A DNA stretch of 64,000 bases from Acidobacteriota bacterium (GTDB lineage: Bacteria; Acidobacteriota; UBA6911): assembly GCA_963664705.1 (NCBI GenBank), contig OY761556.1:6304001-6368000 (forward strand). The letters are read 5' to 3'. Below, one piece after another: positions 7,883-49,775 of this stretch. Numbering within the stretch: the stretch's first letter is position 1; every line of letters starts with the position of its first letter. Under the pieces are notes generated by a model, which was given only the letters and a program-made list of their open reading frames with translations, was not told the DNA's origin and ran no database searches. Position numbers and translations under genes: made by a program.

Positions 7883-9547
7883 TCAGGGTTCCCAGCGGAG
7901 GCAGCCTCGTTGGAGCGCGGTGACTTCCACCGATTCCAGCATCACATTAAAGCCAGTCGATAGATCCACCTCTCGGGTGCCGGTGAGTCGACGGATTTCG
8001 TGTTCGAAACGCACAGGGTTACATCGATGAAGGACTTTCCAATAGTCCATGATTGCTTCGCGTCGCAGCTTTAGAAGAGTGTTAGTAGGAAGGCGGTCAT
8101 GCTTGTCCCGGTTGACCCTTGGATCGGCAGGGAGCAGGTTCCAAAGATCGTTGTTGTGCCAGAGCGAAAATGGCAGTACATGATCGACATCGAAACTTCG
8201 GCTTAGTGTCTTGCCTGTCCAGACGCATACCTTGGAGTCGAGGTCCTGGTAAGCCCGCCTTGCATCTTGGACGTTACGTTCGTAAACGGGCGCGCGCAGT
8301 AATCGATCGATGACCTCGCTTGGACTAACTGTCTTTCTGGAAATTTCAGCGGTCAACTCTCCCCAACGCAAAATCAGAGCATCCTGAATCCAGTGCCCTG
8401 AAAGGCACAGTTCGCGCCAGATATCCCCGCTGACAATCATTCGGCGGCGGTCATTTTCATAGGAGAAGAGTTGTCCGCCCCGTGAAGATCGACCCGCATG
8501 CGTGACGGGACCTTCCTTGATAACGGGGATCAGTTTATTGAATGCAGCCTTGACGAGCTCTCTTTGCTGCCCATTTAAGGAATCATTTCGGAGGGCAATT
8601 GCGAATCCATCCAGGCCGCCCGATCGACTGAATGCTGTGATCAGTTCCTCAAGCTGACGACGAAACCCGATGCGCAGGTGGCCGCCGGCACTTTCCCCAC
8701 GAATCTGGGGAATGAAGGATGAGGAGTCCTCAAAAAGAGGCCAATAGTAATAGATCCAGCGTTCGGCAATATCGTGCACGGGCACGGAGACACGGCCATC
8801 CGGTAGCCATTCAGCAAGATGAAAGTTTGTTTGCGCAATGTCGCAAAGAGCGCGGAAGAGGGCGAGCTTGTATGTTGCCACCTTCCGGTCCCTATTCAGT
8901 ACGCCCTCGATTCGATCAATGGGGCGGAGCGCCTGATCTGAACGGAGTTCAAAGAGCAAAGTCGTCCAGCTGATTCCTGATCTGCCGAGACTGTCGGTGT
9001 CTATCCATGTACCGATGCGCTGGAATCCGAGGCGTTCGAAAAGAAGCTCGAGTTCCTCGGGGACCAGTTGCGTAAAGAGCCTGCCGCCTTCGTCGCGTCT
9101 CGATGCGTCAATTCCGGGACGGTCCTTGGGAATCGACAATAACAAGCGGCCGTTCGCCTTCAGCAAATTGCGAATATCAAAAGCGGCATCGAATTGCTGT
9201 TCACGCGGAATGTGCTGGAAAACTGCGCAGCACAGGATGCCATCGAATTTGCGTCCAATTCGGCCAGCCAGGTCCGGTAATGCTCCAGCCCAAATCCGAC
9301 CCGCAAGGCCTGGTGTCTGCAGCGCAAGCTCCCGCAGCCTAAGGCTCGGTTCCGCGCCATAAGCTTCATACTTCTCACTGATCAGAATGTCCATGTCCCG
9401 ACCTGAGCCCGCGCCTATGTCGAGAATTTCTGAACCTGGCGGAAATGCAACTTTGAAGTACTTCGCCGGACCACTATTAGTTCTCGAATAAGTGGCGAAG
9501 AGCTCATCGCTGTGGTCGTCGTAGTACTGAATTGTTTTGGGATCCAT
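7883..9547 (-). CDS. Class I SAM methyltransferase fused to HNH endonuclease domain
   Basis: ILDIGAGSGRD SAM motif; ATYKLAL; CVWTG...DVDHVLPFS...NDLWNLLP...N..K HNH motif. Confidence 0.85.
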   Translation of the reverse strand: MDPKTIQYYDDHSDELFATYSRTNSGPAKYFKVAFPPGSEILDIGAGSGRDMDILISEKYEAYGAEPSLRLRELALQTPGLAGRIWAGALPDLAGRIGRKFDGILCCAVFQHIPREQQFDAAFDIRNLLKANGRLLLSIPKDRPGIDASRRDEGGRLFTQLVPEELELLFERLGFQRIGTWIDTDSLGRSGISWTTLLFELRSDQALRPIDRIEGVLNRDRKVATYKLALFRALCDIAQTNFHLAEWLPDGRVSVPVHDIAERWIYYYWPLFEDSSSFIPQIRGESAGGHLRIGFRRQLEELITAFSRSGGLDGFAIALRNDSLNGQQRELVKAAFNKLIPVIKEGPVTHAGRSSRGGQLFSYENDRRRMIVSGDIWRELCLSGHWIQDALILRWGELTAEISRKTVSPSEVIDRLLRAPVYERNVQDARRAYQDLDSKVCVWTGKTLSRSFDVDHVLPFSLWHNNDLWNLLPADPRVNRDKHDRLPTNTLLKLRREAIMDYWKVLHRCNPVRFEHEIRRLTGTREVDLSTGFNVMLESVEVTALQRGCLRWEP

Positions 9548-9668
9548 TGGACAGTCATTGTAAAGCCGGCCTGCAAAATGAGGTAGAAAAATGGATGTTC
9601 AGCCCAGAAGGAGATTGAGCACGGCGACATGATCGTCGTAGGATAAAGGCATTCAGAGCGAGACAACA

Positions 9669-10076
9669 ATGCCCGGACACATTCACGTTACATGTGCCAT
9701 CATCCGCCGCCGCGGCTATGTTCTTGCGGCCCGGAGAAGCTCCACCATGAGCATGCCGCTCAAGTGGGAATTTCCTGGCGGGAAGATTCACGAAGGTGAA
9801 ACTCTCGAAGAATGCCTGCGCCGTGAACTGATCGAAGAATTGGGCATAAAAACGCGAATAGGCCCGGCGCTGCCGCCGACAACTCACCAATACCCGGATT
9901 TCATGATTACTCTGTACCCTTTCATTTGTGTCATAGAATCCGGAGATCCGATAACGCACGAGCATGCCGAAGTTGCATGGCTTAGACCGGACGAGCTTCC
10001 TCTTCTGGATTGGGCGGATGCTGACCGTCCGGTGGTGAAGTCGTTCCTGGCAATGCAATCTGAGGATTCTGAATGA
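9669..10076 (+). CDS. MutT-like NUDIX hydrolase
   Basis: Nudix box WEFPGGKIHEGETLEECLRRELIEELG; WADAD tail. Confidence 0.92.
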   Translation: MPGHIHVTCAIIRRRGYVLAARRSSTMSMPLKWEFPGGKIHEGETLEECLRRELIEELGIKTRIGPALPPTTHQYPDFMITLYPFICVIESGDPITHEHAEVAWLRPDELPLLDWADADRPVVKSFLAMQSEDSE

Positions 10077-10252: not shown

Positions 10253-10254
10253 AA

Positions 10255-10445
10255 TAACGTCAGTACAACAGCTGACATATACACTCACGCCTCCGAGGCC
10301 TTGGAGCGGGAATCTGTTGCTGCCTTGGAACGATCCATTTTCGGAAGCTGTGCGCGATTCGGAACCGCGAACAAGAATTTAGTGAATTCACATTTTGTAA
10401 TGAAAGGTCCCAAGTGCTTCCGACTTGCTCGATTTTAAGTGTTTG
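10255..10445 (+). pseudogene. Remnant of integrase 3' end and downstream arm region
   Basis: Closely matches 58410-58609 (AACGTCAGTAC...GCTCGATTTTAAGTGTTT). Confidence 0.88.
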
Positions 10446-12482: not shown

Positions 12483-12670
12483 TAGGCAGCAGTCTTTGGA
12501 ATGGCTGCAAGACTCAGAAATCCAAGGCGCACCTTCTGGCTGCACGCGGTGTTTTCGCTGGATAGCCAAACGAAGGGGTTCAACTGATAACAAATGTAAA
12601 AGTGTGGACAGATTGTCTCACTGGAGGGGTTCACCCCATACCTATGTGTCCGGGATGGACCAATGTGATT

Positions 12671-12716
12671 TGGTAGCGACGGGTGGAATCGAACCACCGA
12701 CCTTGGGGTTATGAAT
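12671..12716 (-). repeat. att core, left: 3' half of tRNA-Met(CAT)
   Basis: Minus strand ATTCATAACCCCAAGGTCGGTGGTTCGATTCCACCCGTCGCTACCA (anticodon loop, T-arm, CCA); identical to 58634-58679. Confidence 0.93.
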
Positions 12717-12819: not shown

Positions 12820-13372
12820 GTCCCGTTCCCAAGATGCAAATGGATTTCAATGAAGATATTTTCTCGGTAATCGTGAATCAAGTCCTCGATACTTCTTAGC
12901 ATAAGTTTCAAGTGAATTAGCACTGAGAACTAAGGTCCACCAACTCAGATATATCTTAGGTAAATCGCTAAGAATGGATTTTTTGATAACAAAATTCCAT
13001 AGCAAAGCAATTATTCTTTACCAACTTTGGTCCGTTTGACTCTGGGCTACCTTGTTCATTATCCACGTTAAAAGGATATCGCTGCTACTCTAGGCCCAGG
13101 CTTGGTAGAATTCCCACCCTCGAGCACATGCGGGATTTATATTCCCTAGGATAGGATCTGAGTTGAAAACGAGCGTGCCCAATGGCTTAAAGGCCACCTC
13201 GCTCGGAGAATATACCTACGAAAACTTGTGATATAGTAAGCGCCCGTGACTGAACGCACACCCAAAACACTTGAGTTGACATACTACAAGCTGCAAAGGA
13301 GAATCCATTTTGAAAATTGGTTTTCTGTTTCTTCCAATCGGCTGAATATGCCAAATATCTAGAGGAGCATGG

Positions 13373-14524
13373 ATGATGAGAAGAATGTTATTGGCGGTGT
13401 TCTTCACGTTCCTTCTATTTGCTGGTCTGTTTGGCTGCCGCCGAATGCAAAAACAACCTAGCATTCAGATCGGAGCGATCCTCAGCCTCACAGGCCGTGG
13501 CAGCCAGTATGGAAAAGCCTCACTTCAGGGCATTCAAGTGGCGGTGGATGAGATGAATAAAGCCGGAGGCGTTCACGGTCACAAGATAGAACTTATTGTC
13601 GAGAATTCCCTGTCCGAAGCAAAGAACGCAGTCGCCTCCTACCAAAAACTCCTTGATGTGGACAAGGTCTGCGCAGTTATAGGTCCTATACTGAGTGACG
13701 AGGTCCTTGCGGTCGCCCCTGAAGCCAACCGGCGAAAAGTCCTGATTATCGCGCCGGCTGCGGGCACCGACAAGATCGCAACGGCAGGTCCATGGGTATT
13801 CAGAAATCGCGAGAGCGCCAATCTTCAGTCTGTAGAGATTGCGGACTTTCTTTTAAAAAAGCAACAACCGCTCCGCCTTGGCATTCTCTTTTCCATGACT
13901 GCTAACGCCATTTCCTATAAGGACGCTCTGTTGGAGGCCCTTGGTGCAAGGAAGAACATGGTGATGGTCCAGGAATCCTTTGCTGAGGGGCAGACCGACT
14001 TTAAGACTATTCTTGCAAAGCTTAAAAAAGCCAACCCAACTCATGTTTTTGTCGCAGGCCTTGCCCCGGAAATTGCGCGAGTGTTAGTACAAGCCGGGGA
14101 GACCCGCCTCGATACAAAATGGCTTTCTACTGCGGGCGCCCACGATCAGAAACTCCTAGAAATTGCAGGTGCATCAGCTGAAGGACTGGTCTTCGGCTTG
14201 CCCGTTCTTAATGCAGCAGATCCTGCTTCTCCTGCGGGGAAATTAGATTCTGAATTGAAGCGACGATTCAAGTCTAGCCTTGACATGTTTTCAGCCAACG
14301 CATATGACGCGGTCCACCTCCTTGCCCGGGCCGCCACATTGTCAGGATCCGAACCAGACCAGATTCGCAAGGGCCTACTACAGATCAAAAATTTCCCTGG
14401 TGCTGGAGGCAATACGACCTTCATCACTCCTGGAACAGTCATTAAACCAATTACATTAATGCAAGTTCGCAACGGGGTGTTCGCGCCCTACTTTGTCGAA
14501 ACAAAAATGCCTCGACTGAAATAA
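13373..14524 (+). CDS. LivK/LivJ-like ABC substrate-binding lipoprotein
   Basis: IGAILSLTG, AVDEMNKAGGVHG, AVIGP, TDFKTILAKL, ANAYDAV; N-terminal hydrophobic segment ending LFGC. Confidence 0.88.
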   Translation: MMRRMLLAVFFTFLLFAGLFGCRRMQKQPSIQIGAILSLTGRGSQYGKASLQGIQVAVDEMNKAGGVHGHKIELIVENSLSEAKNAVASYQKLLDVDKVCAVIGPILSDEVLAVAPEANRRKVLIIAPAAGTDKIATAGPWVFRNRESANLQSVEIADFLLKKQQPLRLGILFSMTANAISYKDALLEALGARKNMVMVQESFAEGQTDFKTILAKLKKANPTHVFVAGLAPEIARVLVQAGETRLDTKWLSTAGAHDQKLLEIAGASAEGLVFGLPVLNAADPASPAGKLDSELKRRFKSSLDMFSANAYDAVHLLARAATLSGSEPDQIRKGLLQIKNFPGAGGNTTFITPGTVIKPITLMQVRNGVFAPYFVETKMPRLK

Positions 14525-14535
14525 AGGTTCGCCTA

Positions 14536-16821
14536 ATGCCCAATAATCCACCAGAACTCGAAGCCTTTCGTCTCGCATGCTGGAACCAGGTCGAACGTTT
14601 TCCTCTCTTAGTGCCTCCGAATGAGCAAATCGAAGCAGTGTCAAAGGATCCCAGAACGCTCCGTGCTCAAGTGGCGCGATTACAGAGCTTCCTTCAAGAA
14701 TCAGCGAGCGAGCTGTTATACAAAACAACGTCATCCATTCAAGCCTTCATGCAACAGCGCATCCCTGGATTTGGCCTTAATGTTGGCTTAGTCTCTACAA
14801 TGCAGATGGCCGGCCCAGCCGTATCAGACCGAGGAATACCTGTATATCAATTCCTTATTGGTGCGGACGATATGTGGAACGCATACTTATCACACAAGTG
14901 TGATGGTGCTGTTCCGTTGGATAGGATTAAGGGCAAACTCGCCGACGGGGTTGCATTGCCCCAACGCCTATTTGGACACAGAAACGCGACAGGAGCGCTC
15001 TTGTCGCCAAACCCACCAGCGGAAATAGATCCCCAAAGACGTGTGGCTATTCCGTATGAACACTCAGCCGGAGGTATCGCCGGCACGGGAAATAAGTTCG
15101 TGTCCTCCTATCCTTGGGCACTTGTATCACCTCTTTCCTTTCCAATGCTATACGCATTAATCCCACGTAATAACACCCCGCTTGGGTTTCTGCAGATGCA
15201 CATCGAACTCCCCGGCATTCCTGATTCGGACAAGTACGCAGGTCACGAACAGGCATGGCTTCGCATCTACAATCCATCAGCCGCTTGGGCTATAGACATG
15301 GCTGCTTTCTTGGCCGCCTTCTGCAATATTCTCTTGGCGCCGGTGCTTGACAGAACAATTTTGCTTCGTGACCACGCAATGCACTCAATCGAAACACGAT
15401 TTTGTTTTCCAGATGACTTTCGAGAAGCCGTCCACCTTCGGGACGAAGATGTACCATGGAATCCCGATACGTACGGTGGTTCAAAATGGGTTCAACAGAT
15501 CGCCCATCTGCACAGTCTCTGGCGAGAACCGACCTTTCCGCCCGCCGAATTGGCCAAGAACCTGATTGACCTTTTCTGGTCGGAGGATACATGGCGTGGC
15601 CTTCCTCCCTTTGACAAACGCAGTGAAGCCGAAAAACTCCTCTTTTGGAGTGAGAAATACAGGGACCACCTCGTACACATTTTGAAAGTATTTCTCATTG
15701 GGGAGAGAATTATTCGAGAGATACACCATGGCAGCGTCTATGCGCGCTCTGTAATTGATAATACTCAACTCTGCGACGACGTGACAACACCGCTCGAAGC
15801 TTTTGAGTTTCAATGGATGCTTGCAGCGACAGTACACGACTATTCACTGCCGTATGAACTTCTTCCAGGTCTGCAAAAATCGTACTGGCGCGAATTCGTG
15901 ATTCCGGGAGACTCTAACGGGGACACTGAAGAGGATCCTGCAACACGCGATCTGGAGGCGATGCAGTTTGGTCTCACGCTTGCCGATAGAGTTCTCCGAC
16001 AGCATCTGGTTGTTAGCCTCTGGCAGTTGCTGCATTCAGAGGTAACGCCGCAAGGGCAGGAGTCATATCCTGCATATTGCCACCTTCATACATTGGGAAA
16101 GTCCGGAAAGAATATTGGCTATCCCAGGTTCTTGAGTTACTTTCTGGAGAATGGCGATCATGGCATTGCGAGTGCACTTTGGTTTTTACATCTCACAATG
16201 CTTGATAAAAAGGATGACGGCACGATTATCGGGCTTCATTCGCCAAACGGGCAAGAAACAGAAGCACGTTGCAGACAGTCAATCGCAGTTGCCAGGGCGT
16301 GCTATTTCCATAACCTTGCGACAAAGCGAGTTAAGAATGATGACAACGGGGCTGGCGAACCGATATTTGCGGGCAACCTCTTTGGCCCATTCGAAAAGGA
16401 TCCTTTGGCCTATCTTCTTCTTCTTTGCGATTTTCTCCAGGATGAAGGTCGAGACGAGAGTACCGCGCAACAATCGGATTCCACAAACGGATGGGGTAAG
16501 CGTCCATTTGGTCACGTAACGAAGGTCGAATGGTGCGACGGCTTTCTAGAAATTTATGTCGAATACGTATGGGTTCAGCGTGCGAAAAACGGGAAACCTC
16601 CTAAGAGGGTAATTTTCGGCGAGGACGGCTGCCAGAAGAAGGAAGGTGTGAAGTGCCATCGTCGTCAACAGACCGAATCGAAGAAACCAAATTGCTGGTT
16701 TCATGACTGCAAGGAGCGTGCCGAAATTGCCAAGGCTTTCGACCTTCTTGCTGCACGTCTTGCCGGCTTGCCTGTCAAAATTTACCTTGCCCATGAGAAG
16801 AAAGGGGCAATTGAACTGTGA
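14536..16821 (+). CDS. Large hypothetical protein with HD-superfamily phosphohydrolase-like domain
   Basis: Ordered motifs RDHLVH, ATVHD, DHGIASA, FHN, LLLCDFLQDEGR; unassigned ~350-aa N-terminus; Cys-rich tail. Confidence 0.65.
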   Translation: MPNNPPELEAFRLACWNQVERFPLLVPPNEQIEAVSKDPRTLRAQVARLQSFLQESASELLYKTTSSIQAFMQQRIPGFGLNVGLVSTMQMAGPAVSDRGIPVYQFLIGADDMWNAYLSHKCDGAVPLDRIKGKLADGVALPQRLFGHRNATGALLSPNPPAEIDPQRRVAIPYEHSAGGIAGTGNKFVSSYPWALVSPLSFPMLYALIPRNNTPLGFLQMHIELPGIPDSDKYAGHEQAWLRIYNPSAAWAIDMAAFLAAFCNILLAPVLDRTILLRDHAMHSIETRFCFPDDFREAVHLRDEDVPWNPDTYGGSKWVQQIAHLHSLWREPTFPPAELAKNLIDLFWSEDTWRGLPPFDKRSEAEKLLFWSEKYRDHLVHILKVFLIGERIIREIHHGSVYARSVIDNTQLCDDVTTPLEAFEFQWMLAATVHDYSLPYELLPGLQKSYWREFVIPGDSNGDTEEDPATRDLEAMQFGLTLADRVLRQHLVVSLWQLLHSEVTPQGQESYPAYCHLHTLGKSGKNIGYPRFLSYFLENGDHGIASALWFLHLTMLDKKDDGTIIGLHSPNGQETEARCRQSIAVARACYFHNLATKRVKNDDNGAGEPIFAGNLFGPFEKDPLAYLLLLCDFLQDEGRDESTAQQSDSTNGWGKRPFGHVTKVEWCDGFLEIYVEYVWVQRAKNGKPPKRVIFGEDGCQKKEGVKCHRRQQTESKKPNCWFHDCKERAEIAKAFDLLAARLAGLPVKIYLAHEKKGAIEL

Positions 16822-18251
16822 GTAATGCTGAAATGAGAGGAATTGCGCTTGTTGAACCATCGAGTGGCCTCGGCGGCTGCTATACCTTCGCTGGCCACAA
16901 TGAATTTGAGCCACTGGGTCTTGAATATGTTGCGGCTTCTTTAAGAGCGGCAGGTCGCAAAGTATCAATACTCCGCCAAGGGACTGATAGTCCAGAGGAG
17001 ATCGCGTCGAAATTGCTAAACCTGAACCCTAGCGCGATTGGGCTATCAGTAATGACACACGCCGCAGAGTCGGCGTTTTCCATTGCTGCAATGATTAAGC
17101 AAAGCGACTCCACGATCCCTATAATTGCGGGTGGCTATCATCCTTCAGGAGACTCGGAATTTGCTCTGTTAACAGGTATTGACTACGTCGTTGCCGGCGA
17201 AGGAGAGCAGACTTTTAGGCACCTCCTCGATACTCTGGACGCATCAAGAGACCCAAGCTCCGTTCCTGGTCTGCGATTCTCGCGTGCCGGAGCAATTGTT
17301 GATACCGGATCCGCACCTCGCATCGCGGACCTTGATAAGATCCCCTTCCCCGTGCGATCAGAGGAGGTCCTCACAAATGCACGAATGCACGGCCTCATGT
17401 CTCCGCCTCCGAGTCAGCAACGAGCAGTCGCCGTCGTCTTGGGGAGTCGTGGATGCCCCCATGCCTGCACGTTCTGCTGTAGTCCCTCATTATGGGGAAG
17501 GCAAGTATACTTCCGCTCGGCACCGAATGTACTTGCAGAGATAGACGACCTTGTCCAACGGTTCCAAACAAATGCACTTTTCTTTTCTGACCTAACATTC
17601 AACGTAAACAATCGGCACCTTCAGAACCTCTGTAACCATCTGGCAGCCTATAAGGCTATGCCGCGTTGGTATTCAATGTGTACGACAACAGGCCTGGATA
17701 TTGAGACATTGCGGATTATGTGCGCCGGCGGTTGCAGCAAGATAGGATTCGGCGTTGAGTCGCTGTCGGAAGATTCTCTGCATAACATCGGTAAAGGCAA
17801 AATGTCTATCAACGGCGAACTGGAGGCAACATTAGCCGCTTGCGATTCGCTAGGCATTCTTACAAAAGGCTACCTGATAATCGGATATCCGTGGGAAACG
17901 GAGTCATCACTAGAACAATTCAAGAAATCTATTTTGTGCTTTCCCATGGATGAAATTCGTATTTCATTTTTTACCCCTTTCCCCGGAAGTATGGCTTTTG
18001 AGCAATATCGTAACAGCTTGATTACTAAGGATTGGTCGAAGTTCAATGCCATTCGGGACATTGTCGTACGTAACGAAAACAACGTGACCCCCGAAAGGTT
18101 GAAGGCGTTCAGACAAGAGGCGTTTCGTGCCTTCTATGGATCTTCTGCCTACCAGGTCCGTGTTCGAGCCAAGATCCAACGTCATCCCGAATTGGGCGCT
18201 TCCTTCGAGGAGTTCTTTGCCTTTCTGAAGGCAGGAGGGGTACTGTCCTAG
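16818..18251 (+). CDS. Cobalamin-binding radical SAM enzyme
   Basis: EPLGLEYVAASL, GGYHPS, GEGEQT, SRGCPHACTFC (CxxxCxxC), FGVES, IGYPWET, TPFPGS. Confidence 0.92.
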   Translation: MSNAEMRGIALVEPSSGLGGCYTFAGHNEFEPLGLEYVAASLRAAGRKVSILRQGTDSPEEIASKLLNLNPSAIGLSVMTHAAESAFSIAAMIKQSDSTIPIIAGGYHPSGDSEFALLTGIDYVVAGEGEQTFRHLLDTLDASRDPSSVPGLRFSRAGAIVDTGSAPRIADLDKIPFPVRSEEVLTNARMHGLMSPPPSQQRAVAVVLGSRGCPHACTFCCSPSLWGRQVYFRSAPNVLAEIDDLVQRFQTNALFFSDLTFNVNNRHLQNLCNHLAAYKAMPRWYSMCTTTGLDIETLRIMCAGGCSKIGFGVESLSEDSLHNIGKGKMSINGELEATLAACDSLGILTKGYLIIGYPWETESSLEQFKKSILCFPMDEIRISFFTPFPGSMAFEQYRNSLITKDWSKFNAIRDIVVRNENNVTPERLKAFRQEAFRAFYGSSAYQVRVRAKIQRHPELGASFEEFFAFLKAGGVLS

Positions 18252-18276
18252 TCTCCTAATCCTGTGTGGAGGCCAA

Positions 18277-19152
18277 GTGTTACAGGTTTTAGCTAACGGT
18301 TGTGCAGCTGGCGCCCGCATACTCCTTGTTGCGGTCGGTTTCTATTTGATCTTCCGCGTTGCCCGCTTTATTCACCTTGCGCATGCTTTCTTCATCACGG
18401 CCGGCGCATACCTTGCTTATACACTTCATAGGCAGGCCGGTTTGTCCTTTCTGCCTGCAATTTTCTTGGCAGTTGTTGCCTGCGGCGTCCTAGGCGGGGT
18501 CGTCGAGGCTATCATCTACAGACCTTCAAGAAAAACGGCCTCATCGCTGGTCTTGTTATTATTATCTTTGGGCCTGTACATTGCTGGTCAAAACATTGTA
18601 TCGCTTCTCTTTGGGGATGCGCCACTTGTTATCAGGCAATGGGAACCACCCACAACGTACACAATGGGCTCTGTCACGGTCACACTAAGCCAGGTCAGCA
18701 CCATCCTGGTCGCAATTGTCCTTGCATTTTGTCTAGGGGTGTTTATTCAGAAAACACGTACTGGCCGCACGCTTAAGGCGGTTGGCTCTAACATGTCATT
18801 GGCGCAGGTTTCAGGAATCCGTGTGGAGGCCACGGTCCTACTTGCTTTTGTTATCGGTTCTGCTTTTGCTGCAACCGCTGGTATTCTCGCATGCCTTGAA
18901 GTAGATGCTACACCGTCAATGGGGCTGAGCATGTTGATGCTCAGTCTGGTTGCGGTGATTGCCGGTTGGCCGCGAGGTCTCCTTGGTATTTCGGCAGTCT
19001 CGCTGATTTTGGGTGTTCTACAACACATTGTCGCGTATTACTGCGGCTCACAGTGGCAAGATACTATTGCTTTTGCGTTTCTAACAGTGGTGTTTCTTCT
19101 TCGGGGAAGGCGTGAAAGCGCGATCTTCGGGGTTGCAGCGGCAAGCAGGTGA
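18277..19152 (+). CDS. LivH-like ABC permease
   Basis: Multiple TM segments; AVGFYLIF...HLAH; TRTGRTLKAV. Confidence 0.88.
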   Translation: MLQVLANGCAAGARILLVAVGFYLIFRVARFIHLAHAFFITAGAYLAYTLHRQAGLSFLPAIFLAVVACGVLGGVVEAIIYRPSRKTASSLVLLLLSLGLYIAGQNIVSLLFGDAPLVIRQWEPPTTYTMGSVTVTLSQVSTILVAIVLAFCLGVFIQKTRTGRTLKAVGSNMSLAQVSGIRVEATVLLAFVIGSAFAATAGILACLEVDATPSMGLSMLMLSLVAVIAGWPRGLLGISAVSLILGVLQHIVAYYCGSQWQDTIAFAFLTVVFLLRGRRESAIFGVAAASR

Positions 19153-19159
19153 AATTCAA

Positions 19160-20047
19160 ATGGATTACATCCTTCATATCGTAGTGTTCATTTTTCTGTA
19201 TTGGGCACTTGCTACGTCTCTCAATCTGGTTGTTGGCTATACTGGTATTCTTTCCATTGGTCACGCTGCATTCTATGGTGTCGGTGCCTATACTGCTGCG
19301 CTTATGTCTCTGCACCTCAAGACTTCGTTTCTGATCAACTTGCTTTGTGCGGCATTGGTGTGTTCCATACTCGGAGTCTTTATTGGCAGGCCTACTCTCA
19401 GATTAAGCAACAATAATTTCGTTGTCGCTTCATTCGCTTTTCAAATCATTACGTTTAACATTCTTAATAACTGGATGCCCGTAACCGGGGGGGCCATTGG
19501 CCTCCCCGGAATTCCTCTTCCATCAATACTTGAACTGACGATTACCTCCCGGTTGGGCTTTGCAGCGCTGTCCGGTATCTTTGCCTTTATTGTATGGTGC
19601 TTTGTGGTATTCCTGGTTCGGTCGCCCATAGGTCGAATCCTACAGGCAACACGCGAAGACGAAGTGTTTGCGGCAGCAATGGGCAAGAATGTTGCCCGGT
19701 ATAAACTACTTGCCTTCGTGATTGGTGCAGTGATTGCCGGCTGTGCTGGCGTTATCTATGCTTATTTTATCAGATACATCGATCCGAGCAGTTTTACACT
19801 GATGGAATCCATCTTCATCCTATCGATGGTGGTCTTAGGCGGAGCCGGCAGCATTTGTGGGCCCATTATAGGAGCAACCATTTTTGTAATAATGCCGGAG
19901 ATCTTGCGGTTTGTGGGGCTGCCCAACGCTGTGGCAGCCAATCTGCGGCAGACACTCTATGGCATCATTCTAGTGACATTTATACTCATCCGTCCACATG
20001 GAATCATGGGGCGATATGGATTTGGAAAGGAGCGCCTGGGTCGATGA
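19160..20047 (+). CDS. LivM-like ABC permease
   Basis: SLNLVVGYTGILSIGHAAFYGVGAY; TGGAIGL; MVVLGGAGS. Confidence 0.9.
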   Translation: MDYILHIVVFIFLYWALATSLNLVVGYTGILSIGHAAFYGVGAYTAALMSLHLKTSFLINLLCAALVCSILGVFIGRPTLRLSNNNFVVASFAFQIITFNILNNWMPVTGGAIGLPGIPLPSILELTITSRLGFAALSGIFAFIVWCFVVFLVRSPIGRILQATREDEVFAAAMGKNVARYKLLAFVIGAVIAGCAGVIYAYFIRYIDPSSFTLMESIFILSMVVLGGAGSICGPIIGATIFVIMPEILRFVGLPNAVAANLRQTLYGIILVTFILIRPHGIMGRYGFGKERLGR

Positions 20048-20799
20048 CGCCTCTCGTTGAGATTACGGCTCTCACCATGCACTTCGATGGTGTCACTGCC
20101 TTGGATGATTTTTCGTGTACTATAGAACAAAGGGAGATCCTCGGCTTGATGGGCCCCAATGGGGCCGGAAAAACTACTCTCCTCAACGTTCTCACTGGCC
20201 TACATACTCCCGACAGAGGAAACGTAACCTTCAAAGGCAAAAATGTCATCGGTCGCCAAGTTCACGAGATCGCACGCCTCGGAGTTGCGCGAACTTTCCA
20301 GAACCTACGCCTCATTCGCCATCTCACGGTTCTGCAGAATGTACTTCTTTGCTTTCAGAATCAACCAGGCGAGCATCTATACGACCTCTTCTTGAAACAC
20401 GGCACCTGTCTTTTACATGAACGGAGAAACCAAGAAAGTGCCAGAACCATTCTGTCGAGAGTCGGACTAGTGCAATCTCAAAATACTCTGGCAGACGACC
20501 TTTCTTATGGCCAACAGAAACTCCTGAGCTTGGCTTGCTGCATCGCCACGGACGCCGAACTTCTGCTGTTGGATGAACCGGTTGCAGGCATCGCCCCAGG
20601 ATTTATAGAAACCATTCTGACCGTCATCCAAGAGTTGTCTAAAGAAGGCAGGTCGGTGCTCGTCGTAGAGCATAACGTTGAGGCTCTGAATCGAATTTGC
20701 CGCCGAGTTATCTTTATGGATGCGGGACGCCAACTCTGCGAAGGAACTCCAACCGAGGTTTTTAACGATCAAAGGATCGTCGAGTCCTATCTCGACTGA
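20044..20799 (+). CDS. LivG-like ABC ATPase
   Basis: GPNGAGKTT, ARTFQ, LSYGQQK, LLLDEP. Confidence 0.92.
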   Translation: MTPLVEITALTMHFDGVTALDDFSCTIEQREILGLMGPNGAGKTTLLNVLTGLHTPDRGNVTFKGKNVIGRQVHEIARLGVARTFQNLRLIRHLTVLQNVLLCFQNQPGEHLYDLFLKHGTCLLHERRNQESARTILSRVGLVQSQNTLADDLSYGQQKLLSLACCIATDAELLLLDEPVAGIAPGFIETILTVIQELSKEGRSVLVVEHNVEALNRICRRVIFMDAGRQLCEGTPTEVFNDQRIVESYLD

Positions 20800-20807
20800 C
20801 AACAATT

Positions 20808-21509
20808 ATGCTCGCAATTAGACAGATGGACTCGGGATACGGCAAAAGGCAGGTGCTTTATGGCCTCTCGCTCAGGATCCAACCGGGCGAGATCGTCGCG
20901 CTAATTGGCCCCAATGGAGCCGGCAAATCAACTGTCCTTAAAGTCATTCACGGCCTGTTACCAGTTTGGGCCGGCGAAGTTTTGTTTGAAGGGATTGGCC
21001 TGGACCGCACCGGCCCCGCTATTCGAGTGGCAAAAGGCATTACTTTTGTGCCACAAGGAAACCGTGTTTTTGGGGATCTCTCCGTCAGGGAGAATTTGGA
21101 GATGGGTGGGGCTCAACTTCCAAAGGAGCTGATCCAAGATCGTATGGAAGAAGCCTTGCAGTTCTTCCCAGCTTTGTGCGATCGCCAACAAACTATTGCC
21201 GGATCCCTTTCAGGCGGAGAACAACAGATGCTTGCTCTCGGTCGTGCCCTTATGACTCGGCCCAAACTCCTGTTGCTGGACGAACCATCCTTAGGTCTAT
21301 CCCCAAATATCAGTTCCCAGGTTTTCGAAAAAATAGCGGACATCAACCGAGAGACAGGCTCCGCTATTTTGATTGTCGAACAGAAAGTTCGTGAAGTTCT
21401 CCTCATTGCGGAACGTATCTACTCTCTAAAGCTCGGGAAGGTCTTCTATGATGGAGGTGCGCAGCCATTGCGGGATGATAATGAACTCCTAAAACGCCTC
21501 TTTCTCTGA
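20808..21509 (+). CDS. LivF-like ABC ATPase
   Basis: GPNGAGKST, LSGGEQQMLA, LLLDEPSLGL. Confidence 0.92.
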   Translation: MLAIRQMDSGYGKRQVLYGLSLRIQPGEIVALIGPNGAGKSTVLKVIHGLLPVWAGEVLFEGIGLDRTGPAIRVAKGITFVPQGNRVFGDLSVRENLEMGGAQLPKELIQDRMEEALQFFPALCDRQQTIAGSLSGGEQQMLALGRALMTRPKLLLLDEPSLGLSPNISSQVFEKIADINRETGSAILIVEQKVREVLLIAERIYSLKLGKVFYDGGAQPLRDDNELLKRLFL

Positions 21510-21758: not shown

Positions 21759-22346
21759 ATGAGCAAATTGTTCATGTCAGAACAAGACATCAAAACTCTC
21801 ATGACTCTGGCCAAAAAAGATCCGCGAGATTATGCGCTCTTAAAACTGATGGCCTCCACCGGGCTCCGCGTCAGCGACATTGTGCGCCTTCGTCGAGATC
21901 AGATGATTGACAGCGACGGCCTGGTTGTAAGAGCAGTTCGAATCAAAATGGAAAAAACTGATCGCTGGATCGATCGCTCTCTTCGAGAGGATGCCCGAGA
22001 GGCTGTCCGAGAATATCTTGCTGCCAGGCATGATTTGCATCCCTGGCTATTTATCAGTCAATCCCGCAGAACAAAATTCGTTGTACCGGGTCCCCTAACC
22101 CGATCGGCAACGCACCAGATCGTAAAAAAATATTTGGCAATGATCTATCCGGCCAGCTTAATCCAGGGGACCGCAACGCATGTGCTTCGCCGGTCAGTCG
22201 CCAAGCTGATCAATCGGAAGACCGGCAGGATCGAAACTGCACAGGAGTGGCTAGGGCACACCAGCACGGCGCATACGCGGGCTTATATTGATGCGGAAGA
22301 TTACCGAGAGAAGGCAAACGGCGTGGTTGCAGGGTTGGACATTTAG
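21759..22346 (+). CDS. Small tyrosine recombinase (catalytic domain only)
   Basis: TGLRVSD, HVLRR, LGH...TRAY catalytic residues. Confidence 0.88.
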   Translation: MSKLFMSEQDIKTLMTLAKKDPRDYALLKLMASTGLRVSDIVRLRRDQMIDSDGLVVRAVRIKMEKTDRWIDRSLREDAREAVREYLAARHDLHPWLFISQSRRTKFVVPGPLTRSATHQIVKKYLAMIYPASLIQGTATHVLRRSVAKLINRKTGRIETAQEWLGHTSTAHTRAYIDAEDYREKANGVVAGLDI

Positions 22347-22483: not shown

Positions 22484-23209
22484 CTACGGCTGAATAGGGG
22501 CTTTCGTCTTCAGCTGAACTACCATGGTATTCCAGAATTCGCGTGCAACGCGAAAATATTCCCTCAAATCCTGCGGAGTGACGAAGAAATCCTGGCCTGC
22601 GAGCGGCAGACGCGTGGGCAGCTTTTCGGAAAACATTTTGATTTCTTCGCCGCGAATACAGGGGGCGACGAACATGTCGGGGCGTACCAAATAAAGTTTT
22701 GAACTTGCTGCGCCGTCGTCAGCATGTTTCACGGTGTCCGCGACGAGCCGCAGCTCATCTATTTTGGGGAATATCGAAAACTGGCGGCATTCGATTCCCA
22801 ATAGCTCTTTTATCCTCGCGAACGCCTGCTTTATGGTTAAGGGCCGGTTACTGGAGTCTGTCGGCTTGATCAGTTCGTTCGAGCAGAAAGCGATTAGTTG
22901 CTGCTCGAGAAGATGGAAAAGAGTTACAACCATTGAATTCAGGACGATCTGCTGAACCGAGGTCATTGCCTCGAAATAGGCGATGCCTGCATCTTGCGCC
23001 TGCTCGGCCAGATCATCTATGTCAATTTCATCAGTTCCAGGGAGATTGCCAAGGCGATCGTACTCGGATTGGCATGCCGTCTCCGCTTCCTTCCCAATCT
23101 GCTCGAAGGACGGGAGCAATTTCTTAAATATGCCACTCTCGAGTATGTCGAGCTGCCAAAGAAACACCTTGCCAATGTACGAGGCATAGAACTGCGCATT
23201 ATGGATCAT
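22484..23209 (-). CDS. Hypothetical helical protein, possibly HEPN-like
   Basis: 241 aa ORF; FHLLEQQL and ELRLVADTVKH motifs. Confidence 0.55.
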   Translation of the reverse strand: MIHNAQFYASYIGKVFLWQLDILESGIFKKLLPSFEQIGKEAETACQSEYDRLGNLPGTDEIDIDDLAEQAQDAGIAYFEAMTSVQQIVLNSMVVTLFHLLEQQLIAFCSNELIKPTDSSNRPLTIKQAFARIKELLGIECRQFSIFPKIDELRLVADTVKHADDGAASSKLYLVRPDMFVAPCIRGEEIKMFSEKLPTRLPLAGQDFFVTPQDLREYFRVAREFWNTMVVQLKTKAPIQP

Positions 23210-23731: not shown

Positions 23732-24538
23732 ATGGTGGGTATGCTACATATGCTGGATCTTCCGATAAACGAAAGTGATAAAAAGCGGCTAAGCGAAGAT
23801 GGGTTTCGATGGGGTGCGATTGGCACGCACACCAGCCGGACCATCATGCTCGACGAGCTTGGAGCGGTACTTGCCAAGTGTTCACCCACGGCAATGCGCG
23901 ACGAGTATCTCTTGGCAATACATGAAGACAACTGCCTGGGAAAGCGTACCACAGCAACGCGGAAGCTTTCCAGCCAGCGACTTTCGGAGTTGTACTCACT
24001 CGACTCAAAGGTACCTCTGTTCCGCATCATGCGAAGGTTCTGGTATGCAGACCGCGATGGACAAGCAATTCTTGCGATATTGCTGGCCCTTGCGCGCGAT
24101 CCGTTATTAAGAATCAGCGCCCCTCCCGTGCTCCGGATGCGCCCTGGTGAAGAGCTTTCAAGACAGCAGATTACCGATGCGCTCAGCCGTGCGGTTGGCA
24201 GCCGCCTCAGCGATAGTACGCTCGATAAGGTTGTTAGGAACGCGGCCTCTTCCTGGACACAATCGGGACATCTGAAAGGCAGGGGAAGAAAAATCAGGCA
24301 GAGTGTCACTCCAACGGCCGTAACGACAGCTTACGCCCTCCTGCTGGGCTACCTCATGGGCATGCGCGGCATGGTTCTCTTCGAGTCATTATGGGCTCAG
24401 GTGCTCGACGCCCCTGTGCCCGAACTTATAAATCTCGCAATGGATGCCCGACGGCTAGGATTCCTGGACATGAGCCAATCGGGAGGCGTGATTTCTGTTG
24501 ATTTCTCGCGGCTCCTGGCGCAAGACGAAAGGCGGTAG
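23732..24538 (+). CDS. brxA: BREX BrxA-like protein
   Basis: GTHTSRTIML, ENCLGK-like motif, SSWTQSGHL; first gene of the BREX operon. Confidence 0.7.
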   Translation: MVGMLHMLDLPINESDKKRLSEDGFRWGAIGTHTSRTIMLDELGAVLAKCSPTAMRDEYLLAIHEDNCLGKRTTATRKLSSQRLSELYSLDSKVPLFRIMRRFWYADRDGQAILAILLALARDPLLRISAPPVLRMRPGEELSRQQITDALSRAVGSRLSDSTLDKVVRNAASSWTQSGHLKGRGRKIRQSVTPTAVTTAYALLLGYLMGMRGMVLFESLWAQVLDAPVPELINLAMDARRLGFLDMSQSGGVISVDFSRLLAQDERR

Positions 24539-24542
24539 ATCA

Positions 24543-25103
24543 ATGGGAAGGATCGAAGAACTGGCCACTCGATACCGCGGACACATCGCCGCACCATGGC
24601 AACGTAACCTCGCTGGAGATCAGAAGGCAATTTTTGTAGTGTATCCGAAAGCAGATGAGCGAAAGCTGCGAGCGCGGATGGAGCTTTTCGAAATGGCCAC
24701 TACATCAGCCGGGCACCGCTGGCGGCCACTTGATCTGACCGGCACCTTTGCGCGATGGATGGCTGAAACCACATACCGCGATATCTACTTCGAGGAACCG
24801 GAAACGCTGTCGATGAAGCTGCGCAGTGACTTTGTGCAGTACGCGGCTGGTAGGCTTCGCGAGGCGTTAACGGCTGAGGGGGTAGATGATGATACCGTAG
24901 TGGCAGTACAGGGCGTCGCAGGCCTCTTCGGCTTCACCCGTGTTTCGCTGGTGCTCAAGGAAGTGGTGAAGGACATTCGTGGCCGGCTGGTAGTGTTTTT
25001 CCCCGGCGAGTATGAGGACAACATCTATCGACTGTTGGATGCACGTGACGGCTGGAACTATCTGGCTGTGCCGATCACGCTCCATAACGGGGTGCACGAC
25101 TGA
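24543..25103 (+). CDS. brxB: BREX BrxB-like protein
   Basis: GRLVVFFPGEY...YRLLDARDGWNYLA; coupled to brxC. Confidence 0.8.
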   Translation: MGRIEELATRYRGHIAAPWQRNLAGDQKAIFVVYPKADERKLRARMELFEMATTSAGHRWRPLDLTGTFARWMAETTYRDIYFEEPETLSMKLRSDFVQYAAGRLREALTAEGVDDDTVVAVQGVAGLFGFTRVSLVLKEVVKDIRGRLVVFFPGEYEDNIYRLLDARDGWNYLAVPITLHNGVHD

Positions 25104-28100
25104 TGAAAAACAAACAACTATTCCAACGAGATCCCGCTGTATCCAAGCTGTTGAATGACGGAGTTGCTGCTGTACGCGAAGCAGCGAGTGCCAAGGAAAT
25201 CGAGACGCTCCGGTATGAGCTTGAGCACTTTGTGTGCGAAGGCCAGTACGAGGATGGCTTGGTTCGCATACTGGAATCCTATCTCGGGAATGTTAGCTCG
25301 ACGACACAGCCGGCAGCATGGGTAAGCGGTTTTTACGGCAGTGGAAAATCTCATTTGCTCAAGATGTTTCGCCATTTATGGGTAGATTCTCGTTTCGACG
25401 ACGGTTCGACAGCCCGTGGTTTAGCGCGGCTCCCTCAGGAAGTTCAGGATCTGCTGCGCGAACTTGACACGCTAGGCAAGCGCAGCGGCGGCTTGCACGC
25501 AGCGTCGGGGACACTTCCCTCAGGCGGAGGCGAGAGCGTTCGACTAGCCGTGTTGAGTATCGTTTTTTCTTCCAAAAACCTGCCGGAAGCACTGCCGCAG
25601 GCACAGTTCTGTATGTGGCTCCAGAAGAATAACTTCCTCGACAGTGTGAAGTCGGCAGTAAAAGCTGCAGGCAAGGAATTTTATAGTGAACTGCACGACC
25701 TTTACGTCAGTCCGATTCTTGCCCAAGCCGTTCTCGATGCCGATCCCAGCTTCGCTGCCGACCTTAAAACGGCTCGCGCTGCGCTGCGAACTCAATTCCC
25801 AGTGGTCGAAGATATTTCAACAACTGAGTTTATCCGGATGGCCCGCGAGGTGCTCTCGGTTGATGGCCAAATTCCCTGCAGTGTTATTGTGCTGGATGAA
25901 ATCCAGCTTTTCATTGCCGGCGATCCGGTGCGGTCCACGGACGTACAGGAAGTAGCAGAGGCACTGTGCAAGCAACTTGATAGTCGGGTACTCCTGATCG
26001 GAGCCGGGCAACAGGCGCTGGCGGCGCAGGACCAGTTGCTTCAACGTCTCACTGGCCGATTCACTATACCGGTGGAATTGTCTGATTCCGATGTAGAAAC
26101 AGTTACTCGACGCGTGGTGCTTTCGAAAAAGGCAGACAAAAAGAAGGCTATTGAGGATACGATGAATGCCCATGCTGGTGAAATTAACCGCCAGCTTGTC
26201 GGTACACGCATCGCCGCATGTGCGGAAGACCGCGATATAGTTGTGGATGATTACCCATTATTGCCAGTTCGCAGGCGATTCTGGGAGCATGTACTACGCG
26301 CAGTGGATGTACCCGGTACGGCAAGTCAGCTTCGTACACAACTGAAGATTGTCCATGAGGCAGTGCGGCAGACGGCTGAGGCAGACTTAGGCACCGTAGT
26401 TGCTGCTGATTTCATCTTTGAGCAGATCAGCCCGGACTTACGAAAGACCGGAATCCTGCTCCGTGAAATAGATGAAACGATTCGCAATCTCGATGATGGC
26501 ACGCCCGATGGCCGACTTGCCCAAAGGCTGTGCGGCCTGATTTTCCTGATTCGTAAGCTGCCGCTGGAAGCTGTTGCCGACATTGGCGTCCGTGCGACTC
26601 CAGAGATGCTGGCTGACCTGATGGTAGCTGATTTGGCTAATGATGGGACGGAACTTCGAAAACACATCCCGCGCATCCTCAAGCTTCTTGCAGATCCGCC
26701 GGCCGAATCGGAACGGCCATCTTGGCTACGTAAGGCCATGCAGGACAAAGGTGCGCTGCTGATCGAGATCGAGGGCGAATACAGCCTTCAAACTCGTGAG
26801 AGCAGCGAGTGGGACCGCGAATTCCGCAATCGCCAGACGCGACTGAACAGCGACCTTACTTTTATTACAAGCAAGCGTGGCTCACTCATTAGCGCATGCT
26901 GTGGCGAGTTGCTCAAGAGCATCAAGCTCGCGCAGGGCAAGTGCAAGGAGCCGCGGAAGCTGCTGATACATTTTGGCAGTGAAGCTCCATCGGCTGGTGG
27001 AACAGACATTCCGGTGTGGATCCGCGACGGATGGGGCGAGAAGGCAAGCACTGTTGTGAACGATGCTCGTGCCGCCGGAAGTGATAGCCCTATCATCTAC
27101 ATCTATATTGAAAAGGCGAGTGCCGATGACCTTCAGAAGACGATCGCAGAATATGAAGCCGCGAAATCCACACTAGACTTCAAAGGTACTCCCACCACTC
27201 CCGAAGGGCGCGAGGCTCGTGATGCCATGGCTACACGGATGGCATCAGCCGAAGCGTCTCGTAACCAGATCGTTAAGGATGTTATAGACCGAGCCAAAGT
27301 CTTTCAGGGCGGCGGTGGTGAGCGTTTCGAGTTGAGTCTCACTGCTAAGGTGGAATCGGCTGCGCTGGCATCGCTCGATCGATTATTTCCCAACTTCAAG
27401 AGTGCGGACGACAGCCGCTGGACTAATGTTATCAACCGCGCCAAGAATGGTGATGAAGCAGCTCTATCTGCTGTGGACTGGACTGACGCTCCGGATAAGC
27501 ACCCCGTTTGTGCGGCCGTGCTTTCGGAGATCGGTTCGGGTAAACGTGGCAAAGATATCCGCGACGCTTTCGAAATCAGCCCATACGGTTGGCCCCGTGA
27601 TGCCGTGGATGGCGCACTAATAATGCTGCACACAACCGGGCACATCCGCGCTGTCCATAAGGGGATGACCCTTTCACAGGGGCAGCTCGACCAGGCGAAG
27701 ATTTCCGTTACTGACTTTCGCGCGGAGACAGCCACAATTAATGCCAAGGATAGAATTAAGCTCCGCAAATTATTCCAAACGGCAGGAGTGGACTGCAAAC
27801 CTAACGAGGAAACCGCTAAGGCACCCGTCTTTCTGGCGCGTCTTATTGAACTGGCAGACTCCATTGGCGGTGAGCCGCCAATGCCAGTGCGCCCTGGGAC
27901 TGGGTATCTCGATATGCTCCGCGGTTTTGGTGGTGTTGAGCAATTGGTTGAAATCCTTAAAGCCCACGACATGCTTGCCGAGCAAACGAAGAACTGGGGT
28001 AAGCTCTCCGAACTCGCTGGCAAGCGCAAGCCCGCCTGGGTCATGCTCAATACCCTGCTCAAACACGCCGACGCCATGCCCGGAGCTGATGAACTCCGCA

Positions 28101-28600: not shown

Positions 28601-28610
28601 TTTTGGAGCA

Positions 28611-29657: not shown

Positions 29658-29664
29658 GATTTTT

Positions 29665-33120: not shown

Positions 33121-33139
33121 CTCTTATTGAGGTGAACTC

Positions 33140-34843: not shown

Positions 34844-34883
34844 TATATGACGAGGCCCGTGAAGCCACTAGAAAGGGTAAGAG

Positions 34884-39060: not shown

Positions 39061-39062
39061 CC

Positions 39063-42144: not shown

Positions 42145-42549
42145 GATGAGTCTGCCTGGTCAGGCGCAAACAAAAACTGCCACGAAGATCTGAGAATGCT
42201 GTTTAAGGAATGATAAGGGATTATACCGGTACAAAATTATGTGCTTCTGAATTACCCTCTCGCTGCGCTGCTTTCCTAAAAAGAGATATTTCTGCTTCCC
42301 GCAGAAATATCTATATGTCTTTTGGAGTAATATATTAAGATTTCGCACCTGAGGCAAAAAGACATCCAAATATCCTCGGCCGATTCGCCGATCGCATTAT
42401 TGCTCATGTAAGGCGCGCTCTGTTCTGGAGTATCTTCCAGAACAGAGCCAAAATACGCGTCTTCTGACAATCGCCAAACCTGGGTAAGACATCTGGCGAC
42501 TAAGCTCCTGGAAACAAACCTGAATGCCAGGGATTAAGTGGGAGAAGAA

Positions 42550-49611: not shown

Positions 49612-49775
49612 ACGCAACTCAAGGTATTCGGAGATTTAACAAAATTTGTGCTTGCGCGAATGGTTATATCAGATTTGATATTAATTCCCTATTGCCTTAT
49701 GGTCTATACCAATTGTCATGATTCTTTGCAATGACAAATCAGCTACACATTATAAAAGACGAGCTGCGTTCGTGA

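Follow-up and report, generated by a model that had tools for sequence, protein, structure and literature searches.

We analyzed a 64,000-nt window of the genome of an Acidobacteriota bacterium (contig OY761556.1, positions 6,304,001 to 6,368,000; coordinates given without a locus handle are those of the window), in which positions 13373 to 21509 hold an operon of seven co-oriented plus-strand genes. These encode a substrate-binding protein (SBP), an HD protein, a B12-binding radical S-adenosylmethionine (rSAM) enzyme and LivH-, LivM-, LivG- and LivF-like transporter components. The results indicated that the operon is real, conserved, undescribed and associated with defense genes. What is new, as judged from sequence comparison, is the combination of genes, and the function remains a proposal. 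Our tentative reading, based on sequences and structural models and placed somewhat short of probable, is that the operon may encode an import-convert-sense pathway whose output is the switching of a nucleotide hydrolase in phage defense.

The first gene encodes a 383-aa SBP of the HAAT/Liv family (13373-14524; Peripla_BP_6, PF13458, E 3e-51) and is followed by the gene for a 761-aa protein, a predicted sensor-effector phosphohydrolase with GAF and HD domains according to an AlphaFold2 model and its fold matches (14536-16821). The third gene encodes a 477-aa class B (cobalamin-binding) rSAM enzyme (16818-18251; B12-binding, PF02310, and Radical_SAM, PF04055). Two BPD_transp_2 permeases, LivH-like (18277-19152) and LivM-like (19160-20047), both identified by PF02653 and NCBIfam models, and two ABC_tran ATPases, LivG-like (20044-20799) and LivF-like (20808-21509), both identified by PF00005 and NCBIfam models, complete the operon. 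The intergenic gaps are, in order, 11, -4 (GTGA), 25, 7, -4 (ATGA) and 8 nt, with the LivM-like start taken as the ATG at 19160; the open reading frame (ORF) list opens the same frame at an upstream GTG at 19112. These coordinates and Pfam matches agree with an earlier interpretation of this DNA (the sequence-only reading), which had described seven tightly spaced co-oriented genes and a GTGA overlap between the HD and rSAM genes. A weak sigma-70-like promoter match (TTGACA-17-GAGAAT, 10/12) was found upstream on the plus strand at 13276-13304, and the number of such matches was at chance level (1 observed versus 1.1 expected).

The HD protein, the B12-rSAM enzyme and the Liv genes were found together at 9/9 loci of the close HD family, namely, the window, L001 to L007 and L019/L020, the last being two contig ends of a same-genus genome (G024). 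DNA was taken for the 8 loci other than the window, whose named hosts were a member of the Phycisphaerae (L001), a delta proteobacterium (L002), a member of the Thermoguttaceae (L003) and a member of the Desulfobacterales (L004). The full gene order of the window recurred in L001, L002, L003 and L019/L020, and the same order was seen in L005 and L006 as far as the contigs go; variant orders were HD-rSAM-SBP-LivH in L004 and SBP-rSAM-HD in L007. The HD and rSAM genes always touched and overlapped by 4 nt at six of the nine loci, and gene trees of the operon members gave roughly the same groupings. Chance juxtaposition was ruled out by the HD/rSAM adjacency beside Liv genes at 8 further loci. 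Hence the conservation of the rSAM, Liv and HD neighborhood that the sequence-only reading had proposed to test was present in several phyla, and the parts do occur together elsewhere. Loci L008 to L013, in which the HD core alone was present, were excluded from the operon count. The unit is rare (2/41 relatives). A phylum-wide sample of 401 genomes gave two matches, the genome analyzed here and one with the HD core only, and two samples searched with the broad profile gave matches in 9/401 and 6/401 genomes, each including the center genome; no new full operon was found in any of these samples. Plasmids yielded no HD match and one distant rSAM protein, and viral contigs yielded no HD relative. 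Among viral B12-rSAM loci, identity did not exceed 32% in the best 80, and no HD-core or SBP match was among the matches listed.

The 761-aa protein had no Pfam, NCBIfam or PADLOC match. Specifically, PDEase_I (PF00233), HD and HD_5 gave no Pfam match at an E value of ≤0.01, and the models PF00233 and PF24391, the latter of which we take to be HD-CE, matched 0/56 HD relatives at an E value of ≤0.02. One search of the protein sequence against the PDB gave 0 matches at an E value of ≤10, and a second gave only 4 unrelated matches. Its HD nature was assigned from conserved ligands and the predicted fold. An AlphaFold2 model built from 27 sequences (predicted local distance difference test [pLDDT] score, 82; predicted template modeling [pTM] score, 0.83) was compared with 48,161 PDB chains by VIA-align. 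In the model, a GAF domain is followed by a long linker helix and then by an HD/PDEase fold. The predicted GAF domain spans approximately residues 5 to 284 (14548-15387), and residues 3 to 284 of the model gave GAF matches with top Z scores of 12.2, 11.2 and 10.7, including 3k2n (Z 12.2; root mean square deviation, 3.2; 169 residues aligned) and 3trc (Z 11.2), with further GAF matches at Z 9.4 (PDE5 GAF 2k31 and a cAMP-bound GAF). ESM language-model features hinted weakly at GAF plus PDEase (0.81). Residues 300 to 757 matched Ppx/GppA (Z 9.8), PDEB1 (Z 9.3), PDE8A (Z 8.9), an HD-GYP protein (Z 8.4) and YhaM (Z 8.0).

Within the catalytic core, delimited by fold matches and invariant residues to approximately residues 336 to 645 (15541-16470), R376, H378, H381, H434, D435, H542, H592, D632 and R639 were invariant in 56/56 aligned relatives. 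Six of these, H381, H434, D435, H542, H592 and D632, form the dinuclear metal-ligand motif H..HD..H..H..D, which a section of a review gives as that of dinuclear HD phosphatases such as YqeK (PMC8177086). The same section states that polynuclear HD phosphodiesterases (PDEs) carry HH at the third site and that the substrate of an HD enzyme cannot be read from its sequence (PMC8177086). At position 593, N was found in 33, D in 13 and H in 4 of the 56 relatives, so the third site is H-N and not HH. The protein does not fit the HD-GYP or polynuclear PDE pattern; a G-Y-P is present at residues 528 to 530, ahead of H542, with a nonconserved G. The invariant R376 lies five residues before H381 and two before H378, whereas the typical HD phosphatase Arg lies three before the first metal His. 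The protein ends in a beta-hairpin and a Cys-rich tail (16471-16818), a possible metal site at which C699, C707 and C725 are invariant and C720 is nearly so in 11 close relatives; these residues are mostly absent in the wider family. Overall, the prediction is that of a GAF sensor followed by an HD/PDEase domain whose dinuclear site is intact.

The SBP has a signal peptide and a lipobox-like LFGC. It belongs, together with the two permeases and the two ATPases, to the broad Liv/HAAT family, and all of these components scored below the NCBIfam equivalog cut-offs (133/477 bits for the SBP against LivJ and 74/379, 156/366, 208/362 and 194/441 bits for the others). The SBP pocket was compared with that of LivJ (1z15) by pairwise sequence alignment, with a tally over seven operon SBPs. 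A docking study, in the part that concerns LivJ, names S79, T102, Y150 and Y202 as ligand contacts (PMC6983066). Of these, S79 was kept in 7/7 operon SBPs, and in the window SBP T102, Y150 and Y202 were replaced by G131, N178 and L230, respectively. A254 occupies the position of LivJ E226, presumably also a ligand contact, and a new R146/E147 pair was fixed in 6/7 operon SBPs. Between four loci whose hosts differ in phylum or genus, the SBPs were 74 to 79% identical, which suggests one specific ligand rather than a standard amino acid. Ordinary branched-chain amino acid uptake was ruled out, as far as sequence can tell, by the pocket residues and the sub-cut-off NCBIfam scores. No other Liv-type system was found in the host genome. 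Binding-protein-dependent ATP-binding cassette (ABC) systems import, and the operon holds no exporter; from the transporter family, the direction of transport is probably inward.

The rSAM enzyme has an intact CxxxCxxC motif at residues 208 to 215. Its B12-binding domain starts at residue 28 and the BchE model at residue 11, so the protein begins directly with the B12 domain. It reached no NCBIfam equivalog cut-off, and 32 relatives, the window protein included, were found at an E value of ≤1e-100. A PDB search gave five matches at an E value of ≤1e-5, all weak (1e-13 to 3e-8), of which AprD4 was the best (1e-13) and 9ccb was another; OxsB was not among these five, in what was a PDB search and not a pairwise comparison. 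Most class B rSAM enzymes appear to be methylases, according to a portion of PMC9204698, and for this reason methylation is the default guess for the reaction.

The HD and rSAM pair had been likened by the sequence-only reading to OxsA and OxsB, an analogy that was not borne out. OxsA has four ligands, H31, H66, D67 and D132, in the section of PMC8177086 that covers it, and OxsB has four domains, with an N-terminal one before the cobalamin domain, in the corresponding part of PMC9204698. Orthology was ruled out by the six invariant ligands and predicted GAF domain of the HD protein and by the domain layout of the rSAM enzyme, which has no OxsB-type N-terminal domain. A broader form of the idea is chemical defense, in which the rSAM enzyme would make a modified nucleotide, the HD protein would dephosphorylate it for release and the transporter would recapture or share it. 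The obligate HD-rSAM adjacency and overlap parallel the need of OxsB for OxsA nearby, reported in an excerpt of PMC13331322, and the defense context at the operon loci also fits. However, the differences from OxsA and from OxsB, together with the import direction of binding-protein-dependent systems and the lack of an exporter, made this reading quite unlikely. The sequence-only reading had allowed that the operon might make or sense a small molecule; the importer and GAF anatomy favored sensing.

A further possibility was that the rSAM enzyme acts on a protein, for which the GAF-HD protein would be the simplest candidate, and that the transporter supplies the GAF ligand directly. Such maturation would suit the invariant coupling of the HD and rSAM genes, and distant HD relatives cluster with a SPASM rSAM protein and PqqD (L010 and L012). 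As the operon encodes no recognition element for ribosomally synthesized and posttranslationally modified peptides and the weak PDB similarities of the rSAM enzyme point to no one substrate class, we consider protein maturation highly improbable.

Read most simply, a unit that combines an importer with a converting enzyme and a hydrolase gated by a ligand, and that has no exporter, catabolic route or regulator, would import, convert, sense and act. In the import-convert-sense pathway that we favor, uptake through the Liv-type transporter would bring in a single, specific small molecule from outside, which the pocket changes suggest is not a plain branched-chain amino acid. The B12-rSAM enzyme would convert the imported molecule, with methylation as the likely reaction, into a ligand for the predicted GAF domain. 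The ligand-bound GAF domain would then switch the predicted hydrolase, whose substrate may be a nucleotide, and the switched hydrolase would harm phage replication or halt the cell. The ligand might turn the hydrolase on, as an alarm from damaged neighbors, or off, as a guard. Points in favor of this pathway are the linkage of the three parts at all nine loci, the defense genes nearby, the predicted GAF and HD/PDEase folds, the invariant metal ligands, the varied sensor modules of the wider HD family, the rapid divergence of the HD protein around fixed catalytic residues, the altered SBP pocket and the lack of a second Liv system in the host. A more specific version, which we regard as unlikely, is a warning immunity between cells: the importer, dedicated and of high affinity, would take up a molecule from infected or lysed neighbors, the rSAM enzyme would activate it and the GAF-gated HD hydrolase would prime defense before phage arrive, with the same HD family wired to other importers and enzyme sets in defense islands elsewhere.

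The same anatomy would also serve a guard or addiction module, in which the importer and rSAM enzyme maintain a ligand that holds a toxic GAF-HD protein off until uptake, energy, S-adenosylmethionine or the island itself is lost. The tight translational coupling of the HD and rSAM genes would suit a toxin-antidote ratio, and the close HD family was never found without the rSAM gene (9/9 loci). On the other hand, L002, in which livG is interrupted by a Mutator transposase, and L001, in which the SBP ORF ends at 271 aa, retain HD ORFs with intact catalytic motifs, although strict dependence on import would penalize such a state. A guard function was therefore judged improbable, ranking after chemical defense.

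A multigene defense system was detected close to the operon at 7/8 loci with flanking DNA, compared with 0/13 control B12-rSAM loci. Defense calls were PADLOC matches at an E value of ≤1e-20, approximately 0.2 to 2.5 kb from the operon, with distances read by hand from the coordinates. The neighbors were bacteriophage exclusion (BREX) in the window; DUF5131, DruE/DpdE-like helicases and a methyltransferase at L001/L024; IetA/IetS at L002/L027; AbiJ-like, short prokaryotic Argonaute (pAgo), type 2 BREX and PRTase-CE/STAND genes at L003/L028; type I restriction-modification (RM) and Mrr at L004; type II RM at L007; and HmaABC, followed by Gabija, at L020/L030. For the control, 13 further B12-rSAM loci were drawn from these genomes, with approximately 9 kb on each side and the same E value threshold. 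Five proteins in four control loci gave matches (mad2, DndA/SspA, DpdJ, ZorB and mad3), never two of one system; we take these to be a generic methyltransferase, a desulfurase, an Lhr helicase, a MotB protein and an ABC ATPase, and the DpdJ match had a high score. Enrichment near defense genes, which the sequence-only reading had proposed as a check, was thus seen, against a control that was not island matched. None of the families of PADLOC 2.0 (2023 library, viperins included) matched the SBP, HD protein or rSAM enzyme at an E value of ≤1e-4.

This neighborhood bears on the main rival, a metabolic or detoxification cassette, in which a nutrient or xenobiotic would be imported, radical modified and dephosphorylated under GAF feedback and would lie beside defense genes through shared mobile islands. 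An importer with enzymes nested in the transporter operon is a catabolic layout, the position of the operon is at one edge of an integrative element and the next tRNA-Met island of the host also carries ABC transporter genes; in addition, the control was not matched for island location. Against a metabolic role, defense genes are often direct neighbors, at approximately 150 to 600 nt at L001, L003, L004, L007 and L020, and at L002 the DNA inserted between housekeeping genes consists of little more than the operon, a methyltransferase gene and IetAS. The operon is not accompanied by catabolic genes downstream or by a regulator, in that no catabolic enzyme or transcription factor was a fixed part of the unit across the compared loci, and the wider HD family occurs in conflict-type contexts. 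A metabolic cassette was accordingly considered doubtful, and it is the most serious competitor of the import-convert-sense pathway.

Relatives of the HD protein were searched for among 1.84 billion sequences, yielding 10, 20 and 65 representatives at E values of ≤1e-30, ≤1e-10 and ≤1e-3, respectively. A word-index search returned 7 close HD proteins, including that of the window, and a repeat with deeper alignment returned the same 7. Tandem GAF domains on the HD core were detected by Pfam in 5/56 relatives scanned, all distant ones, and RyR repeats were detected in 5/56; some relatives carry other domains. At 16 further loci from two phyla, the HD core lies behind or is fused to varied sensor or switch modules (NB-ARC/TPR, ParA/MinD, histidine kinase plus receiver, Sir2-like, TIR-ORC and radical SAM), and loci of the wider family are often near integrases, AbiE or BREX. 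A related SBP was found at 0/16 of these loci, and one had a B12-rSAM gene 1.4 kb away. The HD core thus looks like an output domain that has been connected to many different inputs, in the manner of conflict effectors.

Several arrangements recurred among these relatives. An HD-core relative was accompanied by a GT4 glycosyltransferase at L008 (911-3622), L009, L010 (614-7907), L011 (627-3649) and L012 (2473-8739), and, where the contig reaches, these clusters include an asparagine-synthetase-like protein, a prenyltransferase fold, PqqD and a SPASM radical SAM protein. Defense-type genes lie near the L011 and L012 clusters, possibly marking another biosynthetic defense cluster. A ParA/MinD ATPase gene directly precedes an HD-core relative at L068 (3-8423), L080 (1-8233), L013 (362-2681) and L066 (522-3102), with a 2000-aa protein ahead of ParA/MinD in L068, where it has TPR matches, and in L080. 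At L064 (6414-11470) and L079 (3415-8589), a PocR histidine kinase, a small receiver-sized gene and an HD-core relative stand in a row. The HD core is fused to Schlafen AlbA_2, NB-ARC and TPR in a 1287-aa protein at L065 (7210-11073). A second HD-core paralogue of the host, of 742 aa, is encoded at L161 (7329-14071; approximately 5.73 Mb in G000:C1), and the genes for a GAF-GAF histidine kinase and for a fusion of a receiver with a metallo-beta-lactamase are divergent from it; at L001 a PocR-GAF kinase (17438-19810) is convergent on the operon.

A number of points weigh against an import-convert-sense pathway in defense. By sequence, the GAF domain gave no Pfam GAF match, and hhalign comparisons with the GAF domains of five relatives gave E values of 0.08 to 0.45; since this sequence-profile test was negative, the GAF call rests on the predicted model. 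GAF-HD proteins also serve ordinary signaling, and the GAF/PocR histidine kinases near L001 and L161 also fit general signaling. Sequence comparison showed far more rapid divergence of the HD protein than of its operon partners (38% identity versus 70 to 76% for the partners between the window and L019/L020, with catalytic residues fixed, and 72% versus 94% between L003 and L006), which could reflect relaxed constraint. The rSAM enzyme of L007 is only 24 to 25% identical to those of the other loci, and the chemistry may therefore differ between loci. The link to an importer is limited to the close subfamily, because no related SBP was found at the 16 wider loci. The copies with the interrupted livG and the short SBP ORF look damaged. 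As for the defense association, the neighbors of L005 gave only weak defense matches (E value of approximately 1e-8), L006 was without flanking DNA and was left out of the 8-locus count, and the control scan covered a hand-picked 96/171 ORFs. The control loci were mostly core-genome paralogues, and hence the comparison cannot separate defense genes from any island cargo.

The operon belongs to a 46-kb element and begins approximately 0.65 kb in from its left repeat. The two boundaries of the element are marked by identical 48-bp sequences from the 3' end of tRNA-Met, which form minus-strand attachment (att) repeats on the left (12669-12716) and right (58632-58679) and are identical to the end of an intact tRNA-Met gene approximately 160 kb further on in the genome. 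The island integrase is encoded at 57372-58550 on the plus strand (PF00589 and PF14659). Directly after the operon lies a plus-strand gene for a small tyrosine recombinase consisting of the catalytic domain only (21759-22346; PF00589); it was not adjacent to the operon at the other loci compared and is context rather than a conserved part. A convergent gene for a 241-aa protein with no family match (22484-23209) separates the operon and recombinase from a plus-strand BREX locus (23732-41111; PADLOC BrxA/B/C, PglX, PglZ and BrxL), inside which a TIR protein gene, an AIPR/AbiU-like gene and a HEC-01 AAA pair are inserted (28611-36712). These are followed by a plus-strand McrB-like and McrC-like pair (42538-46136; Pfam AAA_5, DpnI_C and McrBC) and, on the minus strand, by a short pAgo system (46296-49617; PADLOC pAgo_I and Aga_REase-TIR), in which the pAgo gene (47785-49617) is accompanied by that of an Mrr-TIR-APAZ partner with two effector domains (46296-47819). 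The Pfam and PADLOC matches to BREX, HEC-01, McrBC and short pAgo supported the earlier view that the other large cargo of the element consists of defense systems.

The tRNA-Met att sequence was found in four copies, two in the window and two at 6401472 and 6522609 of G000:C1, giving at least three tandem elements over approximately 206 kb. An integrase remnant near 10253-10444 suggests a further decayed element, and just outside the left att repeat a methyltransferase-HNH fusion is divergent from a Nudix gene (7883-10076; PADLOC PDC-S07). In two sequencing runs of one sample, possibly the source sample, the element assembled into one contig of 45,975 nt at the depth of its flanks; scattered near-identical pieces of it were present in run X5, and almost none were present in run X6. 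No RNA run was among those listed as containing it. The assembled contigs gave no sign of an excised form of the island, although contigs cannot show absence. At other loci, a short pAgo gene with an HNH-APAZ partner lies upstream of the operon copy of L003. Co-oriented genes directly upstream of the SBP gene of L019 (4045-9664) encode a type II-like methyltransferase, a protein with a double HATPase and a 586-aa protein without a family match, and the last of these genes overlaps the SBP gene by 4 nt.

Literature searches aimed at the operon found no description of it, including in the portion of PMC7159879 consulted, and supplementary tables of comparative-genomics papers could list it. If the import-convert-sense pathway is correct, the operon would be a candidate for immune signals that pass from cell to cell or for a radical SAM chemistry that is new to defense. 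Even if its role is metabolic, it leads to an unnamed HD family of 65 representatives (E value of ≤0.001), without a Pfam, NCBIfam, PADLOC or PDB sequence match, which stands behind many kinds of sensor modules. Experimental work would be limited by rarity and uncultured hosts, and would have clean handles in the soluble SBP, the GAF domain and the defined catalytic residues.

Among known systems, OxsA/OxsB of Bacillus megaterium, which makes oxetanocin A, likewise couples an HD phosphohydrolase to a cobalamin radical SAM enzyme, according to parts of PMC9204698 and PMC13331322, but the operon differs in its dedicated importer and defense-island setting. The LivJ/K-LivHMGF system of Escherichia coli matches the operon in its five component families and in their SBP..H-M-G-F order; it lacks the two inserted enzyme genes and has the T102, Y150 and Y202 contacts that are replaced here. 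GAF-regulated HD/PDEase proteins (PDE2/5/6 and the GAF-HD-GYP protein of PDB 4mcw) resemble the modeled 761-aa protein in having a GAF domain, a long linker helix and an HD/PDEase fold; the operon protein differs in its Cys-rich tail and in being encoded beside an importer and a radical SAM enzyme. The H..HD..H..H..D motif is shared with YqeK-type dinuclear phosphatases, as outlined in a section of PMC8177086. These enzymes and deoxynucleoside triphosphatases of the dGTPase/SAMHD1 type also have a conserved Arg before the first His, whereas the operon protein has its Arg five, not three, residues before H381 and has a predicted GAF regulation. Nucleotide depletion is an antiviral strategy of bacterial dGTPases, and an antiviral role is likewise attributed to SAMHD1. 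The cyclic oligonucleotide-based antiphage signaling system (CBASS), Thoeris, Kongming, Panoptes and the viperins offer the closest parallels in logic, with an enzyme-made small molecule read by a sensor-effector or with a radical SAM enzyme in defense. To our knowledge, the bacterial immune signals described so far are both produced and sensed within the infected cell; these systems use intracellular nucleotide signals without an importer, whereas the operon described here encodes an importer of its own.

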